Source: Candidatus Woesearchaeota archaeon
GTDB lineage: Archaea; Nanobdellota; Nanobdellia; SCGC-AAA011-G17; ARS1403
DNA: 56,555 nucleotides
Assembly: GCA_018302705.1 (NCBI GenBank)
Contig: JAGVZI010000011.1
Span: forward strand, 1-56,555
Direction of reading: 5' to 3'
In this document: in pieces, positions 9,380-28,081 of the stretch
Position numbering within the stretch: the first letter of the stretch is position 1
How the letters are laid out: the number at the start of each line of letters is the position of its first letter
Notes under the pieces: model-generated
What the model was told of the DNA's origin: nothing
Seen by the model: the letters and a program-made list of their open reading frames with translations, nothing else
Databases searched by the model: none
Translations under genes and position numbers: made by a program

Positions 9380-10792
9380 ATGGGGCAAGAGGAAGTAAAA
9401 AAAGAATTAAAGAAGTCAGGCTCGTGGTTGTTAAGCAATGAAATAGCTAAAGCAACCGGGCAATCCCTTAAATCAATCCAGTCATCTTTGCGCAGGCTTG
9501 TAAAATGGGGGGAGGTAAAGAAAGAGCCGGCTTCAAGAGTGATTCAAGACTCCAACAGGCTGAAGGAAAAAAGCTTCGCAGGGTATGCCTATAAGATAAA
9601 GGATTTCAAGACAATAGATGATTTCAAGTTCAAAGATAAGACAGTGTTGCTAAGGCTGGATTTAGATTCGCAGATGCACCCGAGTTTCATTTCAACGGAT
9701 CATTTTTCTCATCACCTTCCAACTATTTTAGAGCTCCTGGAGAAGCAGGCCAAGATAGTAATCCTGACGCACCAGGCATCAAAATCAAATGATGGAAAAA
9801 ACCCTACTCCCTTATTAGACATGCACGCATCTTATCTCTCGCAAAAGCTAAACAAGGAGGTGAGATACATAGATGACCTCACTGGAGAAACAGCCCAGAA
9901 CAGCATAAAATCGCTAACCCCGGGAGATATTATTATATTAAAAAACCTGTTTTCAGAAAAAGAAGAGATGAAAACAAAGTTCAAAAAGCAGAAGAAAACA
10001 AAGCTTGTTAAAACTCTCTCCCATTTAGCAGATTATTACGTTAATGATTCTTTCTCTCTAGCTCATTTATCCTACACATCATTAACAGGGTTCCCGCAAG
10101 TAATGCCTTCATGCATCGGAAGATTTTTTGAAAAGGAGATTGAAGCTGCAAATCACCTGTTAGATCCAGTAAAGCCGTGTTTGTATATTCTTGGAGGAGA
10201 TAAGCCACTGGAGCTGGCGCCATTCATCAAGGCATCTCTCGAAAAAAACAGGGTTAACACAATACTCACCTCAGGCTTCCTCTCCCATCTGCTTCATCTA
10301 GCCCAGGGCAAAAAGCTCGGCGGCCAGGAAGAGGAGCTAAAAAAGCTGAAAATAAAAGTCTCCTCAGACATAAAAAAGATTGCAAAATATGAGAACGTTA
10401 TCCTCCCGAAGGATTATAAGGCCTCTACTTTAGGAGTAGCAGAAAAAATCTCGCTGCATCATTTCCCCATTTACCAGAGCCTTTATGAGATCGGGTCTGA
10501 AACCGTGGAAGATTATTTAGGGTTGATAAAAAATGCCAAGACTATTGTAATCAAAGGCCCATTAGGAAAAATAGAGGACAATAATTTTCAAGAAGCGACA
10601 AAAGCTGTTTTAGAAGAAATTGAAAAGTCAAATGCCTTTACATATATTGTAGGCAATTCAACAGTAGATTGTTTTAAACAATTTAATATCCCAATAAAAA
10701 ACATCAAGCACCTCTCAAAAAACACCCAGCCATTGCTTACTTATCTGACAGAAGAAAAGCTCCCAACAGTAGAAGTTCTGAGGACGAAATGA
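9380..10792 (+). CDS. N-terminal winged-HTH fused to a degenerate phosphoglycerate-kinase-fold domain
   Basis: HTH at aa 1-75; PGK framework KTVLLRLD, YVNDSFSLAH, ILGGDK, KGPLGKIE, with catalytic motifs altered. Confidence 0.8.
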   Translation: MGQEEVKKELKKSGSWLLSNEIAKATGQSLKSIQSSLRRLVKWGEVKKEPASRVIQDSNRLKEKSFAGYAYKIKDFKTIDDFKFKDKTVLLRLDLDSQMHPSFISTDHFSHHLPTILELLEKQAKIVILTHQASKSNDGKNPTPLLDMHASYLSQKLNKEVRYIDDLTGETAQNSIKSLTPGDIIILKNLFSEKEEMKTKFKKQKKTKLVKTLSHLADYYVNDSFSLAHLSYTSLTGFPQVMPSCIGRFFEKEIEAANHLLDPVKPCLYILGGDKPLELAPFIKASLEKNRVNTILTSGFLSHLLHLAQGKKLGGQEEELKKLKIKVSSDIKKIAKYENVILPKDYKASTLGVAEKISLHHFPIYQSLYEIGSETVEDYLGLIKNAKTIVIKGPLGKIEDNNFQEATKAVLEEIEKSNAFTYIVGNSTVDCFKQFNIPIKNIKHLSKNTQPLLTYLTEEKLPTVEVLRTK

Positions 10793-11094
10793 AGTACAAC
10801 AAATTAGTAAGGGATAAAATTCCAGACATCATCAAACAAAAAGGATCAACTCCAATTATAAAAATTGCTGATGATGAAGAGTATCTGGAAAGACTAATCG
10901 AGAAGTTTAAGGAAGAATCTGATGAATTTCTAAAGGAATTTAGTGAAGAAGAACTGGCAGACTTATTAGAAGTGATTTATGCAATCTGCGACTTCCAGAA
11001 AATCGATACAAAGAGATTAGAAATTTTAAGAAAAGAAAAGTCTGAGAAAAGAGGAGCATTTAAAAATAAAATAATCTTAAAAGAAACTAAGTAA
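10789..11094 (+). CDS. MazG-like nucleoside triphosphate pyrophosphohydrolase (PRA-PH-like)
   Basis: YNKLVRDKIP, EELADLLEV, KRGAF. Confidence 0.88.
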   Translation: MKYNKLVRDKIPDIIKQKGSTPIIKIADDEEYLERLIEKFKEESDEFLKEFSEEELADLLEVIYAICDFQKIDTKRLEILRKEKSEKRGAFKNKIILKETK

Positions 11095-11095
11095 T

Positions 11096-11783
11096 ATGAC
11101 ACTAATAGCAGGGATTGATGAAGCCGGTAGAGGGCTTTAAATTTTAAAGTTCGCCATAAGGTCCAGTAATCGGTCCCTTAACAATCGCAGGAATTTTAAT
11201 CAACGAGGAAGATTCAGCCAGATTAAAAACTATTGGCGCAAAAGATTCTAAGTTGCTGATTCATAAAAAGCGCGTAGCCTTATCAAAGCAGATCCTCAAG
11301 ATAGCGAAAAATCATAAGGTATTAGTTGTCCATCCAGATGAAATAGACTATGCAGTTCATGGCCATGACGGCTTGAATTTAAACTGGCTTGAAGCTAGAA
11401 AAACAGCAGAGATCTTGAATTATTTAAGGCCAGATAAAGCAATTATCGATTGCCCCTCTCCAAATATAAAAGCATATACAAACTATTTAAGAAAATTTAT
11501 TAACAATACTGACTTGGAATTAGTAGTAGAGCACAAGGCAGACAGAAATTTTTACGTTGTAAGCGCGGCCTCGATAATTGCTAAAGTTGCAAGAGAAGAA
11601 GGGGTTGAAAAAATTGAAAAGAAGATCGGGCAGAAAATCGGAACAGGATATATGTCAAATCTTCAGTGCCAGGAATTTGTGAAAAAAAATTTCGACAAAC
11701 ATCCTGAATTATTCAGAAAATCCTGGATGCCTTATAAAAAACAAGTTGAGGAGAAAGAGCAGAAAAAATTAAATGAGTATTAA
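11096..11783 (+). CDS. rnhB: Ribonuclease HII, intron-interrupted: join(11096..11130,11159..11783), 219 aa
   Basis: MTLIAGIDEAGR in one frame; GPVIGPL...KDSK...HKAD...VSAASIIAKVAR in another, separated by 28 nt. Confidence 0.9.
11131..11158 (+). other. 28-nt relaxed-BHB intron in rnhB mRNA
   Basis: Central CGGT/GCCA (one mismatch), bulges AGA and TAA, intron hairpin GCTTTA/TAAAGT. Standard BHB cut positions give GGT AGA GGT CCA (GRGP). Confidence 0.78.
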
Positions 11784-12011: not shown

Positions 12012-15000
12012 ATGACTTACATTAAAAAGATGAAGATACACGGCTTCAAATCTTTCGCGAAGCCCACTGAGCTCCCGTTTTCAAAAGATTTCTCTGCGGT
12101 TATAGGCCCGAACGGAAGTGGGAAGTCATGCCATTATGATACGGTTATAACCATTTCAAGTGGAAAAGAAGTAAAGATTGGAAAGATAGTAGAAGAGCAA
12201 TTGAAGAAAAATCAAAATAAGACTTTAAAAGATGGAGTATATTGTGAATCTCAAGAGCCGTTGGAAATTATATCTATAAATCCAAGTTCTATGAAACAAG
12301 AGATAAAGAAAATCTCTCAATTTATAAAAAGGGAAGGAGAGGAATTATACAATATAAGTACTTCATTGGGAAAGGAATTAAAAGCAACAGGTTGCCATCC
12401 AATAATGGTCTTTAGAGATGGAAAATTAAAGAGCACCTTAATCAGAGACATTAAAGAGAATGATCTTATTGCTTCTCCAAGAATAATAAATACAAGAGAA
12501 GAAAAAAGTTTTGATAAGGATAAATCGAGGCTATTAGGATATGTAATCGGAGATGGATATATTGCTGAAGATAGGATAGAGTTTGTAAACCAAGATAAAG
12601 AAATTTTGCAGGATTTTAAAGAATTATTAATTAAATTATATATTGACCCTAATATAAAAGAAAGATATGAAAAAAATATAACAAGGGTTTATGTAAGAAA
12701 TAAGATCATAGTAAATGATATAAGAAATGCAGTAAAAAGAAACCATCTTGGATCGATAACATCAGAATTTAAAACAATTCCAAATGAAATATTGGGTTCT
12801 GATAAGGAAACAATAAGAAATCTTTTAGCAAGTTTATTTGATACAGATGGCTATATAAGAAAAGATATCTCTATAATAGAGTTCTGTTCTAAGAATGGAA
12901 ATTTAACAAAACAAATTCAAAGACTTTTATTAAGATTTGGAATAATTTCTAAAGTAAAGGAGAGGATTAATTATGCTTATAATACAGAAAATAAAACAAA
13001 GAGATCGTATTATTACCTTTATATCTATGGTTGTGAAAATCTAAAAAATTTCTATATAAATATTCCCCTAAGATGCAAACATAAAAGAGAAACCTTAGAG
13101 AGTTGGGTTTCAAAAAATAAAGTTCCAAATCCAAACAGTGATTTGTTACCAAAGGAAGTTAATAAATATATTAAAAATTTAACGAGTCTGCTTGGGATAA
13201 AAATAAAAAATGAAAAGAAAAAATATCCAAAATTAGGTGCTTACTATGAAGATATATGTCAGCCATCAAGAGAAGGAATAAGAGATTTATTGATCTTCTT
13301 TGAGGATAAATTAGCCAAGATAGTAAATGCATTTTCAGAGATAAGATTAAACAAAGAATCCTTAATGGAGATTCTTCCATTGTTAAACATATCTTATGCT
13401 CAAGCTTCATTAGGAATAGGTCTAGGCAAACACACGATCACCGATAGTTGGAGGTTTCATGGTTGGAATGGGAAAAAAGAAAATTTACAAAGTTTAAATG
13501 ATTTCATCAGGGCAACGATAGGGGATAGGTTGATAGAAATTAAAAAAATATTTTTGGAATTACAAACAATTTCGAATTCAGATATATACTGGGAAAAAAT
13601 TGTGTCAATAAAAAAAACTGAAAAAGTGCCATATGTTTATGATTTAACAGTTTTGGATAATCATAATTTTATCGGTGATGGAGTCTTTGTTCACAACAGC
13701 AACGTCGTCGATTCATTATGCTTCGTCCTCGGCAGGTTATCATCAAAATCAATGCGTGCAGAAAATTCAGCAAAATTAATTTACAATGGAGGAAAGAATG
13801 GAAAGCCGGCAACTGAGGCTTATGTCTCTATTTTATTTGACAATTCTAACAGCTCATTCCCTGCAAAGGCTAAAGAGATAGAAGTCAAGAGGGTTGTCAG
13901 GCACAACGGGCAGTCAAAATATTTTATTAACGGGGAGTTAAGGACAAGGCAGCAAATTCTCGACCTGTTGGCAGCGGCAAAAATAAACCCCGACGGCCAT
14001 AATATAATCTTGCAAGGGGACATCACGCATGCAGCAGAAATGCCTCCTGAAGAGCGCAAGTATATAATAGAAGACATAGCAGGAATCTCTGTTTACGAGG
14101 ACAAAAAAGAAAAGGCTGTCAGGGAGCTGGAGAAAGTTGAATCGCAGTTAAAAGAAGCCGATATAGTCTTGGCAGAGAGAGGCACTTATTTAAAAGAACT
14201 AAAAAAAGATTATGAACAAGCATCAAGGTACAAAGAGCTGGAAAAAAATATCAGCAGAAACAAAGCCACTTATCTGCATCTTCAGGTAAAACAAAAAGAA
14301 GACAAATTAAACAAGGTAGTTTCTTTAATAAGCAAAAATCAATCAGAAATAGATTCGATTAATAACAAAGTCTCGCAACAGCAGCAGGAGTTTGAGGGAA
14401 AAAAGCAGGAATTGCAGAAATTAAAAGACGAAATTGAAAAAAGCGGGGAATCATCCCAGTTAGCTTTGCACAGCGAAGTGGAATTATTGAAGGAGCAGCT
14501 GGCGGATGATAAAATCCGGTTTTCAACCATTCAAAATGAAATAAGCTCCTTGAATGAAAGAACCTCACAGCTTAAATCCTCCTTGCAGGATTCGGATAAA
14601 AAGGTCCAGTCGCTGCAAAAAAAGAAATCTCAGCTGGAGTCAGAATTAGCAGATTTGAAAGAAGAGGCATCAAAAAAGTCCCAGGAGTTAAGCAAGCTTA
14701 AAGAAAAGCACAGCCCTGATGATTTGGAAGCAGAGGTAACGAAGCTCGACTCAAAAATAGAATCCCTCAAGTCTCAAAATCTCGACGATAAAAAATTAAG
14801 TTTGCTAAGGGAAAAAGATAAAGCAGAAATAAGATTAGGCACAATAGAAAAGCTTGCAAACAAGCAGCAGCTTGAAAAGTTGGCTAGCTTAAAGCAAAAC
14901 TTCAAGCAGGCAGCCCAGAATTTAACTAGGGTTTCAGAGGAAGATTCGACATTGCTGAACCAACTATCTTCAGCCAGGATAAAAATACAGCAGCATAAAG

Positions 15001-16991
15001 AAGAGCATGCAAGGTTAAGCACGCAAAAAACATTGGCAAAAGAGCACTCTGCTAATTTGGCAGTCAGCAAAATAAAATCGCTGAACATGCAGGGGGTTTA
15101 CGGAACATTCTCGGAACTAGCCCATGTTCCTTCAGAGTATTCATTGGCAATTGAAGTTGCAGCTGGAAGCAGGATCAATAGCATCGTCGTTAAAGATGAC
15201 AGTATTGCAGCAAAATGCATTCAGTATCTTAAAACAAATAAATTAGGCACAGCAATATTCCTGCCACTGAATAAATTAAAAAATCCGCCGCTGCAAAAAA
15301 TTAATCACGGCCGCGGCTTGGCAATAGATATAATCAAATTTGATCCGCAATTTAAATCAGCATTTCAATATGTCCTGGGCAGCACAATTATCGTCGATAA
15401 CATAGAGGCGGCAAGAAAAATAGGTGTTGGAAAATGCCGCATGGCAACTTTGGACGGGGATTTAGTTGAAACCTCTGGTGCGATGATAGGTGGCTTTAGA
15501 AGAAAGCATTCTTCCTTGTTCTTGGCTCCGGGAATAGAAAAAAATCTTGATTCATTATCCTCGGAAATATCAAAGCTTGGCTCATTGATAAAGGATCTTG
15601 AGAAAAAGCTTGTCGTTAACGAGGGGAACATGAGCAAGGCAAGAGAGGAAAAATCAACTCTGGAAGGGGAAATATTGAAAATACAGGCATCAGTTGGCGA
15701 CATCGAACAAGTTTTGAAGGAAAAGCAGGAGCTCACAGCAAAACTTAAGCAGCTGAACTCAGAGATTTCAGGGATAGAATCAGCTGTTAGCAAAAATCTA
15801 GCGTTATTGAAGGATTTAAACAAAAAAAGGTCTTTCTTAAGGGAAAAGATAAGTCAGAAAAGAAATCCGAAAATGATGGCGCAGATAGAATCCCTGGAAA
15901 AGTTAATGCAGGAATTAAATGAAAAAAGAATCTTGCGGAATTCAGAAATAAATAACATAGCGTCGCAGATAAAAGAGCTGATACTTCCTGAAAAAGAATC
16001 GATGCAGAAAATAGTAAAGCAGAATGCATCCCAGCTAGAGCAGTTTAATTCAGAGATAAAGCGTTTATCTTCTTCAACATCGGAAAAAACATCTCAAATA
16101 AAAGATAAAGAAAAGCAGGAAGCTAAGCTCTACAGCAATTTCAGGGATATGCTGAGCAAGAGGGAAAAATTAAATCAGCTCTTGCAGGGGCATGAAATAA
16201 AGATTAACAATGAAAAGAATAAGACCCAAATTTTCGAGGAGCGTATAAACAACTTCTCGTTGGACAAGGCAAAAATAGCCTCTGAGATAGCAGGCTTAAA
16301 TCAGGAAATGCAGGAATACAAAGGTGTTTCATTAAGAAAGGGGATGTTAGAATCAGAGTTAAAAGATGAAATATCAAAATTTGAATCACTTATAAAGAAT
16401 CTTGGAAATGTAAACCTCCGCGCTTTAGAAATATATGAGCAGGTGCAGAGAGAATACGAATCCCTTGAGCTGAAGTCAAGCAAGCTTAAAGAGGAAAAGC
16501 AGGATGTCCTGAAAGTTATAGATGAAGTAGAATCAAAAAAGACTTCGACTTTCATGAAAACTTTTAGCAAAATCAACGGCAATTTCGAATCAATCTTCAG
16601 CCAGTTAACAACAAAAGGTACAGCTCATTTAGTTCTTGAAAACCCAGGAAAGCCATTGGAGGGCGGAGTGCAGATTATGGTTAAGATAGCTCACAATAAA
16701 TTCCTCGACATTAAAAGCCTCTCAGGAGGGGAAAAAACCCTGACAGCATTAGCCTTTATATTCTCAATTCAAGACCATGATCCAGCGCCGTTTTACATGC
16801 TGGACGAGGTAGATGCTGCATTAGATAAAAAGAATTCAGAAAAATTATCAGAGCTTATTAAGAGGTATTCGCAAAAGGCGCAATACATTGTTATTACGCA
16901 TAACGATTCTGTAATATCTGGAGCAGATAAATTGTATGGAGTTTCAATGCACAAGGACGGAATGAGTCATGTTGTAAGTCTGAAGGTTTAA
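12012..16991 (+). CDS. smc: Chromosome segregation protein SMC (intein-containing)
   Basis: GFKSF, GPNGSGK, hinge GVYG...GGF, LSGGEK, LDEVDAALD. Confidence 0.95.
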   Translation: MTYIKKMKIHGFKSFAKPTELPFSKDFSAVIGPNGSGKSCHYDTVITISSGKEVKIGKIVEEQLKKNQNKTLKDGVYCESQEPLEIISINPSSMKQEIKKISQFIKREGEELYNISTSLGKELKATGCHPIMVFRDGKLKSTLIRDIKENDLIASPRIINTREEKSFDKDKSRLLGYVIGDGYIAEDRIEFVNQDKEILQDFKELLIKLYIDPNIKERYEKNITRVYVRNKIIVNDIRNAVKRNHLGSITSEFKTIPNEILGSDKETIRNLLASLFDTDGYIRKDISIIEFCSKNGNLTKQIQRLLLRFGIISKVKERINYAYNTENKTKRSYYYLYIYGCENLKNFYINIPLRCKHKRETLESWVSKNKVPNPNSDLLPKEVNKYIKNLTSLLGIKIKNEKKKYPKLGAYYEDICQPSREGIRDLLIFFEDKLAKIVNAFSEIRLNKESLMEILPLLNISYAQASLGIGLGKHTITDSWRFHGWNGKKENLQSLNDFIRATIGDRLIEIKKIFLELQTISNSDIYWEKIVSIKKTEKVPYVYDLTVLDNHNFIGDGVFVHNSNVVDSLCFVLGRLSSKSMRAENSAKLIYNGGKNGKPATEAYVSILFDNSNSSFPAKAKEIEVKRVVRHNGQSKYFINGELRTRQQILDLLAAAKINPDGHNIILQGDITHAAEMPPEERKYIIEDIAGISVYEDKKEKAVRELEKVESQLKEADIVLAERGTYLKELKKDYEQASRYKELEKNISRNKATYLHLQVKQKEDKLNKVVSLISKNQSEIDSINNKVSQQQQEFEGKKQELQKLKDEIEKSGESSQLALHSEVELLKEQLADDKIRFSTIQNEISSLNERTSQLKSSLQDSDKKVQSLQKKKSQLESELADLKEEASKKSQELSKLKEKHSPDDLEAEVTKLDSKIESLKSQNLDDKKLSLLREKDKAEIRLGTIEKLANKQQLEKLASLKQNFKQAAQNLTRVSEEDSTLLNQLSSARIKIQQHKEEHARLSTQKTLAKEHSANLAVSKIKSLNMQGVYGTFSELAHVPSEYSLAIEVAAGSRINSIVVKDDSIAAKCIQYLKTNKLGTAIFLPLNKLKNPPLQKINHGRGLAIDIIKFDPQFKSAFQYVLGSTIIVDNIEAARKIGVGKCRMATLDGDLVETSGAMIGGFRRKHSSLFLAPGIEKNLDSLSSEISKLGSLIKDLEKKLVVNEGNMSKAREEKSTLEGEILKIQASVGDIEQVLKEKQELTAKLKQLNSEISGIESAVSKNLALLKDLNKKRSFLREKISQKRNPKMMAQIESLEKLMQELNEKRILRNSEINNIASQIKELILPEKESMQKIVKQNASQLEQFNSEIKRLSSSTSEKTSQIKDKEKQEAKLYSNFRDMLSKREKLNQLLQGHEIKINNEKNKTQIFEERINNFSLDKAKIASEIAGLNQEMQEYKGVSLRKGMLESELKDEISKFESLIKNLGNVNLRALEIYEQVQREYESLELKSSKLKEEKQDVLKVIDEVESKKTSTFMKTFSKINGNFESIFSQLTTKGTAHLVLENPGKPLEGGVQIMVKIAHNKFLDIKSLSGGEKTLTALAFIFSIQDHDPAPFYMLDEVDAALDKKNSEKLSELIKRYSQKAQYIVITHNDSVISGADKLYGVSMHKDGMSHVVSLKV
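12126..13697 (+). mobile_element. Intein (about 524 aa) with LAGLIDADG homing endonuclease in the SMC Walker A
   Basis: GSGK|SCHYDT...TGCHP...LLGYVIGDG...LASLFDTDG...VYDLTV..HNF...VHN|SNVVD; more AT-rich than the exteins. Confidence 0.92.
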
Positions 16992-27981: not shown

Positions 27982-28081
27982 TGGGGACGGAGGGATTTGA
28001 ACCCCCATCAACCGGTCTGGAGCATTGACTAACCTTTAAATTTTAGTTATCGGTCACACTACCGGATTATGCTACGCCCCC
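27982..28081 (-). tRNA. trnW: tRNA-Trp(CCA) with 27-nt intron at position 30/31
   Basis: Acceptor GGGGGCG/CGTCCCC, T-loop GTTCAAATC, spliced anticodon arm ACCGG-CTCCAGA-CCGGT; 73 nt after splicing. Confidence 0.92.
28024..28050 (-). other. BHB intron in tRNA-Trp
   Basis: Central helix TGAC/GTCA, bulges CGA and ATG, intron stem TAACT/GGTTA. Confidence 0.88.

Follow-up and report, generated by a model that had tools for sequence, protein, structure and literature searches.

A predicted bulge-helix-bulge intron in the RNase HII gene of a Woesearchaeota-type archaeon

We analyzed a 56,555-nucleotide (nt) stretch of archaeal DNA, from contig JAGVZI010000011.1 (hereafter the window), and in particular its gene rnhB, which encodes RNase HII. 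The 28 nt at positions 11131-11158 interrupt the reading frame of rnhB and most probably represent a bulge-helix-bulge (BHB) intron carried by the pre-mRNA of rnhB in a tiny groundwater archaeon of Woesearchaeota type (DPANN), a reading to which we give a probability of roughly 0.88 on the strength of comparative sequence analysis. The window lies on contig C12 of an 851-kb draft metagenome-assembled genome (denoted G000) that comprises 34 contigs at ~35% G+C and is 97.7% complete with 0.3% contamination. Close relatives in the public collection carry the title Candidatus Woesearchaeota.

The ATG start codon of rnhB (11096-11098) is located one base past the stop of the upstream open reading frame (ORF; 10789..11094). 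The first rnhB frame encodes M T L I A G I D E A G R G L and is terminated by a TAA at 11138-11140. A second frame, GPVIGPLTIAG..., begins at 11160, directly preceded by an in-frame TAA at 11157-11159, and extends over 207 codons to a stop at 11781-11783. The two frames are offset by 1, and no simple frameshift joins them because the first closes at 11138 and the second opens only after the TAA at 11157-11159. Deletion of 28 nt unites them: a 35-nt exon 1 and a 622-nt exon 2 give 657 nt, or 219 codons. Removal of 11131-11158, 11132-11159, 11133-11160 or 11134-11161 yields the identical product because the sequence AGG is present at both ends. The reading-frame features of the locus are the following.

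11096..11130, plus strand: rnhB exon 1, from the start codon to the AG of the Arg codon (MTLIAGIDEAG plus AG-)
11131..11158, plus strand: predicted intron of 28 nt, identical in contigs of 4 DNA runs
11138..11140, plus strand: TAA that ends unspliced translation after 14 residues, as read from the frame
11159..11783, plus strand: rnhB exon 2, consisting of the A that completes AGA, 207 codons from GPVIGPL... and the stop at 11781-11783

Exon 2 matches the Pfam family RNase_HII (PF01351) with an E value of 1.7e-31 over model positions 9-197 of 199, and the match starts at exon-2 residue 1. The same residue aligns with residue 12 of the archaeal RNase HII chains 1uax_A, 1io2_A and 1eke_A, and exon 2 covers residues 12-210 of 1uax_A. 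Since exon 2 is aligned from its own first residue (Pfam position 9; 1uax_A residue 12), the missing part is what the short first frame encodes. Exon 1 contributes the N-terminal sequence MTLIAGIDEAGR, that is, the 11 residues that are absent from exon 2 in comparison with the solved structures and that correspond to Pfam model positions 1-8. Joined in silico, the two exons together supply what the family profile calls for, the DEAGRG motif at the N-terminus included. The gene is single-copy in G000, and standard gene callers begin it late, at TTG 11253. An earlier, sequence-only reading of this DNA had proposed that rnhB starts at 11096, that it is called too late and that its frames are broken by a 28-nt hairpin insert; the layout described above matches this proposal in every detail checked. 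The TAA at 11138-11140 likewise bears out its expectation that translation of unspliced mRNA halts within a few codons.

An 81-nt RNA segment around the insert folds into the 9-bp insert hairpin, an internal loop and a 10-bp helix formed by 11110-11119 and 11169-11178. Within the internal loop, CGGU (11125-11128) opposes GCCA (11153-11156), flanked by the bulges AGA and UAA, which corresponds to BHB topology. The central helix has an exonic 5' strand and an intronic 3' strand; of the two bulges, the 5' one is found on the intron side and the 3' one on the exon side, and the distal 10-bp exon-exon helix is separated from the motif by internal loops. As modelled, the rnhB motif of G000 is a relaxed BHB. 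For the cbf5 intron, the accessible part of PMC2738675 describes a cut that separates the second bulge base from the third; applied to rnhB, this rule selects, out of the four cut pairs that restore the frame, the one at 11130/11131 and 11158/11159. The predicted elements of the fold, all on the plus strand, are listed below.

11110..11119, plus strand: 5' strand of the distal exon-exon helix, pairing with 11169-11178 (minimum free energy fold and RNAalifold)
11125..11128, plus strand: 5' strand of the central helix, CGGT, made up of the last base of the Ala codon and the Gly codon; pairs with 11153-11156
11129..11131, plus strand: 5' bulge AGA (the Arg codon), with the predicted cut at 11130/11131
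11132..11152, plus strand: intron-internal hairpin of 9 bp, 11132-11140 with 11144-11152, loop AUU at 11141-11143
11153..11156, plus strand: 3' strand of the central helix, GCCA, within the intron; pairs with 11125-11128
11157..11159, plus strand: 3' bulge TAA, with the predicted cut at 11158/11159; in an alternative register, a 4-nt bulge at 11156-11159
11169..11178, plus strand: 3' strand of the distal exon-exon helix (minimum free energy fold and RNAalifold)

A search of Rfam returned no family over the insert at E <= 1. A SNORD56-like match at 10829-10888 on the minus strand scored 23.1 bits, below the gathering score of 36, and was taken as chance.

Inserts at the same site are found in related genomes. 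We searched 61 of them for rnhB; 55 gave a match and 6 none, and the N-terminal junction was inspected in all 55. Thirteen of the 55 genes have an insert whose position agrees to the codon (G000, G002, G003, G006, G010, G013, G017, G022, G026, G030, G036, G042 and G047), and these genomes, all of one order, belong to at least 11 taxonomic families. Forty genes are uninterrupted, including those of G001, which belongs to the same genus as the window, and G008, which belongs to the same family. Two junctions were left unscored, that of G031 (contig end) and that of G039 (the N-terminal stretch of its locus, L036, is a run of N). Of eleven named Woesearchaeota loci, three come from additional genomes and have a 22-nt insert, three duplicate G001-G003 and five are uninterrupted, so that the insert set consists of 16 distinct genomes (13 plus the three named loci). 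The 16 inserts are 22-31 nt long and their hairpin sequences are unrelated. Without exception, exon 1 retains the start codon and GIDEAGR and ends in ...GGN AG, and exon 2 starts with A GGN; the join reads DEAGRG(P/A/S), and the start codon precedes it by 7 codons. Without splicing, the frame terminates 0-7 codons past the Arg/Ser codon in 16/16. On a quick gene tree of rnhB, which is poorly resolved (25 of 55 inner branches open), the intron-bearing genes are dispersed, with 11 changes of the label, at least 7 of them forced by well-supported branches; 79 of 500 shuffles were as low. The tree seems compatible with ancestral presence plus many losses as well as with repeated gain, and cannot separate the two.

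The RNase HII open frames of G047 (L054; 686 aa) and G012 (L055; 691 aa) are long and match the family in two parts, which suggests an intein inside both genes. G047 would then hold two kinds of insertion in rnhB, a putative intein and the BHB intron at DEAGRG.

Pairing in the predicted helices is maintained across the orthologues. In the 13 insert-bearing sequences, the central helix together with the first three inner pairs is 94.5% paired, compared with 70.7% in shuffles, of which 0/500 were as high, and shifting the 3' partner by 1-3 columns lowers the value to 22-47%. Five of the seven helix pairs change on both sides; the first three inner-hairpin pairs are 100% paired, all three with changes on both sides. 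When all 16 sequences are considered, the Gly wobble base and the first base of the intron 3' segment form CG in 7, UA in 3, UG in 3, GC in 2 and AU in 1, and are unpaired in none. The outermost central pair is CG in 4, UA in 4, AU in 3 and non-standard in 5. Eleven of the 16 orthologues thus have a standard pair at the outer position and hence four standard pairs, and both variable pairs covary. The C.A outer mismatch is common to three members of the window genus and G047, and G036 has G.A. Every sequence but G036 fits at least one of two registers, and RNAalifold run without a supplied structure recovers the BHB motif, apart from a register shift. In the distal exon-exon helix, 82.5% of cells are paired over the 16 sequences. 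Its mean number of pairs is 8.3 of 10 in intron-bearing rows (n=18, two duplicates) versus 6.4 of 10 in uninterrupted rows (n=46, one duplicate), a contrast of suggestive value at most, given that each strand is protein-coding and that the rows share ancestry.

The sequence downstream of the insert bears the marks of a functional gene. The ratio of nonsynonymous to synonymous substitution rates (dN/dS) of exon 2 is 0.090 for G000 versus G003, 0.045 for G000 versus G002 and 0.049-0.072 among the three 22-nt carriers, values that indicate strong purifying selection. Comparison of G000 with its intronless congener G001 yielded 0.098, the same as among intron-bearing genes, and exon 2 is intact across 207 codons in every intron-bearing genome examined. 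Contigs from four DNA runs of four studies span 11131-11158 with 0 differences and 0 gaps (covering 11061-11500, 11061-11500, 11092-11261 and 11057-11495; contigs rather than reads were used, and one run may be the source sample). One low-depth relative contig, with 3 differences in 33 nt, runs ...AGAGG directly into TCCAG... and represents an intron-free allele from the same sample.

These results bear on several points of the sequence-only reading. Its relaxed BHB with cuts past 11130 and 11158, rebuilding AGA and a protein of 219 aa, gains support from the 16 genomes and from covariation. It had asked whether the insert might be an assembly error, and the insert is unchanged in the contigs of the four DNA runs. 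The comparison that it suggested between orthologues with and without the insert separated 13 insert-bearing from 40 uninterrupted genes among the 55, to which the three 22-nt carriers are added. Decay of the rest of the gene, which it had named, in combination with solely unspliced transcripts, as evidence that would overturn the intron, was not seen, with dN/dS at 0.045-0.090.

The same cutting rule would also restore two further genes of G000. The gene for EF-2 (L069, contig C8:6000-8700, minus strand), which is single-copy, contains a 32-nt insert at L069 2244-2275 that splits the P-loop. This insert displays a helix ACGG/TCGT, bulges AAT and CGA and a 10-bp inner helix; EF-2 exon 2 begins at GTP_EFTU model position 17, and splicing by the rule rebuilds AHIDHGKTT. 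The RtcB gene (L057, contig C26:7797-12068, minus strand, ~2652-2800) has an internal stop and is divided into three ORFs by two mini-introns, the three pieces matching the consecutive Pfam model positions 1-24, 25-53 and 52-426. Intron 1 (28 nt) forms the helix GGGG/CCCT, its bulges being ATA and TTA; in intron 2 (30 nt) the helix is ACAT/GTGT and the bulges are AAT and AGA. Application of the rule to these inserts rebuilds HWGYGFPIGG and GFDINCG. Because the essential EF-2 is interrupted in the same manner as rnhB, it can be argued strongly that the inserts are removed.

We extended the comparison of both genes to relatives, with 30 loci each.

EF-2 (L073-L102): 10 with a BHB intron (at 4 P-loop positions), 9 intein-like, 8 uninterrupted, 3 unsolved (L074, L082 and L085)
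RtcB (L103-L132): 10 with BHB introns (14 introns; 2 upstream and 3 downstream positions), 4 intein-like, 14 uninterrupted (including 2 in which a paralogue-like sequence missed the search pattern and which were counted as uninterrupted), 1 unsolved, 1 at a contig end

Every locus solved by the cutting rule has a single solution (16/16 for rnhB, 10/30 for EF-2 and 10/30 for RtcB). The intein-like insertions are situated at K/TT in EF-2 and at N/CG in RtcB. Within the window genus, the EF-2 introns of G000 and G003 are located 11 nt apart, and G002 has an intein.

Further candidates were sought in a scan of G000 that combined the BHB motif with an ORF-joining criterion. The raw output amounted to 5627 candidates in 2808 ORF pairs, among which a codon-usage score failed to separate known positives from noise. 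Candidates were then required to have a length of 20-45, a 5' bulge beginning with A, a 3' bulge ending with A and a dominant ORF downstream, which left 142 ORF pairs. EF-2 ranked first, and the top three were completed by a probable gene-boundary false positive on C30 and by rnhB; RtcB intron 2 appeared mid-list, and RtcB intron 1 was missed because the middle exon is shorter than 40 codons. Most of the other pairs inspected resembled gene boundaries. An aIF5B candidate was rejected, as an ordinary start codon is present just upstream of the motif, and a LeuRS candidate was left unconfirmed, its gene start not being settled. The scan is blind to in-frame stop-free introns, to introns of >80 nt and to introns beside very short exons.

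In all four G000 mRNA introns the 5' bulge starts with A and the 3' bulge ends with A (AGA/TAA, AAT/CGA, ATA/TTA and AAT/AGA), and four clean canonical tRNA introns of the genome likewise end their 3' bulge in A. This may reflect an enzyme preference or just A-rich composition, and it does not constitute independent evidence in the filtered scan.

G000 encodes the enzymes with which such introns could be processed. Its tRNA-splicing endonuclease EndA, encoded at C18:29866-30441, is a 192-aa product with a catalytic domain (PF01974, E 1.2e-30) and an N-terminal domain (PF02778, tRNA_int_endo_N); the nearest solved chains are 3iey_A, the Nanoarchaeum catalytic subunit, and 1a79_A, the M. jannaschii homotetramer. 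A search of G000 with both the family and the protein as query found no second copy. Because the genome has a single EndA gene, the enzyme is presumably a homotetramer. The ligase RtcB is represented by the gene split by two inserts (PF01139, E 5.8e-147). Using its intron search, ARAGORN identified 28 tRNA genes genome-wide, many of them intron-bearing, and at least four (Gly-CCC, two Ser-TGA and Glu-TTC) display a 4-bp helix and 3-nt bulges at the ARAGORN-predicted intron borders. The sequence-only reading had linked RNase HII expression to the tRNA-splicing machinery, and this link is strengthened by the presence of both EndA and RtcB and by the restoration of EF-2 and RtcB under the same rule.

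A default tRNA scan of the window found 0 genes. A tRNA-Leu(CAG) at 27982-28081 on the minus strand, with an intron at a non-canonical position, was seen by the ARAGORN intron search only; a BHB with 4 bp and 3-nt bulges, TGAC/GTCA, fits near the borders. The window also contains an SMC gene (12012-16991, plus strand, 1659 aa) with an intein carrying a LAGLIDADG domain in the N-terminal ATPase (P-loop) region; Pfam assigns residues 49-562 to Intein_splicing, and the SMC_N match continues from 563. The phosphoglycerate kinase gene (9380-10792, plus strand) has ~78 extra N-terminal residues, the Pfam PGK match covering residues 79-457.

For rnhB, we propose the following course of events. The transcript would fold so that exonic CGGU pairs with GCCA at the intron's 3' end, with the AGA and UAA bulges on either side; the 9-bp intron hairpin would close the structure inside and the weaker exon-exon pairing outside. 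We infer that EndA would then cleave past the second base of each bulge and that RtcB would join the exons, re-forming the AGA codon. The spliced mRNA would encode a complete 219-aa RNase HII with the catalytic DE of DEAGRGP and the junction peptide ...DEAGRGPVIGPL.... The unspliced message would give a 14-residue peptide only, and RNase HII production would therefore depend on the tRNA-splicing enzymes.

Several observations weigh against this interpretation. The central helix of G000 contains 3/4 standard pairs (C.A, G-C, G-C, U.G), with a C.A mismatch at the outer position. Of the CGGT/GCCA helix put forward in the sequence-only reading, the bulges AGA and TAA are as it described them, and the helix itself needs this qualification; its further suggestion, that the imperfect BHB may be regulatory, is conjectural. 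The outer helix next to the 3' bulge amounts to 1 bp (C-G) in the canonical register and to GCC/GGU in the alternative one, and RNAalifold favours a central helix of 3 bp and a 3' bulge of 4 nt, a register in which the Ala wobble base is paired with the first G of exon 2. The 81-nt fold has a z of -2.3, with 4/200 shuffles as good, and the 49-nt fold a z of -0.65, values that are only modest. The fold of the single G000 sequence is weak evidence alone, and the case for more than chance rests on the comparison, whose 16 genomes are related and do not represent independent samples. According to the available text of PMC5829648, alpha4 EndA was formerly recognised as cutting the strict motif only. 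The intron is located 35 nt from the start codon, and an initiating ribosome could compete with folding. Finally, 14 sequencing runs hold the stretch, and 0 of them are on record as RNA.

Four other explanations of the 28 nt have to be weighed. The mRNA might stay uncut, with the ribosome taking off near the Arg/Gly codons, skipping the hairpin and landing before GGT CCA; ribosomes hop in this way in phage T4 gene 60 and at yeast mitochondrial 'byps'. G000 taken by itself would suit such a bypass, with GGG at the hairpin foot, a stop soon after (11138) and GGT 28 nt downstream, and a GGG-to-GGT hop would give the right protein. In the relatives, however, the codon after AGA varies (GAG, AAG, CTA, TTA, TAA, AGG and others), the triplet before GGT is TAA, AAA, ATA or TTA in 16/16, and a matching Arg/Gly landing codon is seen in 0/16. 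Bypass also predicts neither the covariation of the Gly wobble base with the 3' end of the insert nor a single geometric rule that repairs EF-2 at 4 sites and RtcB at 5 sites. We know of no archaeal case of translational bypass and consider it very improbable here. The possibility that 28 nt are absent from the DNA of the organism, as an assembly or sequencing artefact, deserves thought in a metagenome-assembled draft of 34 contigs. The agreement between separately assembled contigs of four runs from four studies (0 differences, 0 gaps) and the homologous inserts in independent relative genomes reduce it to a practically negligible one.

A broken gene would be a further explanation, with the hairpin or a small repeat sitting in a decaying rnhB pseudogene or with the downstream part made from an internal start. 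Gene callers do start the ORF at TTG 11253, and small symbiont-like genomes lose genes, 6/61 relatives being without an rnhB match. Against this stand the dN/dS of 0.045-0.090 across intron-bearing lineages, the intact exon 2 with an exon 1 that keeps start codon and GIDEAGR in all 16 genomes, and the persistence of the insert in at least 11 taxonomic families with its pairing kept. A product made from 11253 would be without the DE of DEAGRG, which we take to be the catalytic residues of RNase HII, and the essential single-copy EF-2 is interrupted likewise; we judge decay to have a slim prospect. A similarly slim chance attaches to removal from the RNA without EndA and RtcB, for example by self-cleavage or with a different nuclease and ligase. 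EndA cleavage is predicted here, the motif is relaxed and one type of EndA subunit was found, all of which leaves room for another activity. Yet the conserved features are those of a BHB, namely a 4-bp helix, 3-nt bulges and cuts past the second bulge base, and tRNA introns of the same genome share them. Inserts of 22-31 nt are far below the size of self-splicing introns and gave no Rfam match; a group I or group II intron, which needs a catalytic core of hundreds of nt, was rejected on these grounds.

The interpretation as a BHB intron can be compared with known systems, foremost the cbf5 pre-mRNA intron, which was reportedly studied by Watanabe 2002, Yoshinari 2006 and Yokobori 2009. In the accessible text of PMC7714728 (2020), cbf5 in Crenarchaeota is given as the only additional BHB intron reported besides a case in a 5' untranslated region (UTR), and in that of PMC5829648 pre-mRNA introns are otherwise cited via cbf5 papers only. 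A full-text literature search, with most subscription journals outside its scope, returned no report of BHB introns in RNase HII, EF-2 or RtcB or of mRNA introns in DPANN/Woesearchaeota. The rnhB intron resembles that of cbf5, as far as the available part of PMC2738675 describes it, in its relaxed BHB, in the cuts between the second and third bulge bases and in a patchy distribution that has been read as gain and loss. It also resembles it in lying at, or adjoining, the codon of a catalytic residue, which in cbf5 is an Asp (PMC2738675, same part). The two differ in the host gene, here RNase HII, and in the lineage, DPANN/Woesearchaeota as opposed to Desulfurococcales/Sulfolobales. Whereas cbf5 splicing is tied to hetero-oligomeric EndA, one EndA gene was found in G000, and unlike the cbf5 intron the rnhB intron is one of several in the same genome, including those in the ligase gene. 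Splicing of cbf5 has cDNA and in vitro proof, whereas that of rnhB is predicted from sequence. The BHB intron in the 5' UTR of Haloferax volcanii HVO_1309 is likewise part of an mRNA processed by the tRNA-splicing endonuclease; it differs in that it lies in an untranslated leader on which no reading frame depends and in having been shown experimentally (PMC7714728, accessible text). Archaeal tRNA introns share with the rnhB intron the motif and the presumed enzymes. In the four G000 tRNAs named above, the outer helix (the anticodon stem) is strong with 5-7 bp and the inner one weak with 0-2 bp. The introns of rnhB, EF-2 and RtcB show the reverse, with an inner helix of 4-10 bp and, in rnhB, an outer helix of 1 bp.

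A looser likeness exists to HAC1/XBP1 splicing, in which a short intron is also removed from mRNA by proteins only, free of the spliceosome and with a change of frame, and in which an RtcB-type ligase is possible. HAC1/XBP1 mRNA is cut by IRE1 and ligated by RtcB or Trl1; endonuclease and RNA motif are different and the process is stress-regulated. Splicing of this type is mentioned in PMC13149111 and in reference titles of PMC5829648, within the accessible portions of both. Inteins occupy the same kind of site as the mini-introns, the most conserved catalytic motifs, and the EF-2 P-loop and the RtcB NCG hold either a mini-intron or an intein in relatives. They differ in being removed at the protein level and in that many encode a homing endonuclease, whereas the mini-introns are 22-35 nt long and non-coding.

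Archaeal protein-coding genes are usually treated as uninterrupted. On the present comparison, rnhB would be the second gene family with a BHB intron in its coding region, in a distant uncultured lineage and with a seemingly single-subunit endonuclease, and the support from relatives is unusually clean; a seemingly alpha4-type EndA would need to accept relaxed mRNA motifs. The pattern is wider than one gene, the essential EF-2 and RtcB being interrupted likewise at several neighbouring sites, often in alternation with inteins. Gene callers truncate or split such genes, and inference of completeness and metabolism for DPANN genomes is biased as a consequence. More tentatively, and at odds that we hold to be clearly less than even, the BHB mini-introns of 22-35 nt could be mobile or recurrently arising elements that settle, like inteins, in the most conserved catalytic-motif codons of housekeeping genes (DEAGRG in RNase HII, the P-loop in EF-2, the metal-binding motifs in RtcB) and are gained, lost or moved by a few bases even inside one genus. 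They would make essential genes dependent on splicing, with the RtcB loop acting as a checkpoint or an addiction-like lock; if this is true, the RtcB message itself would require splicing, which would close a self-referential loop. These genes would offer a testable system for the entry and exit of protein-spliced introns in coding sequence, and for whether splicing gates expression under coupled transcription and translation.

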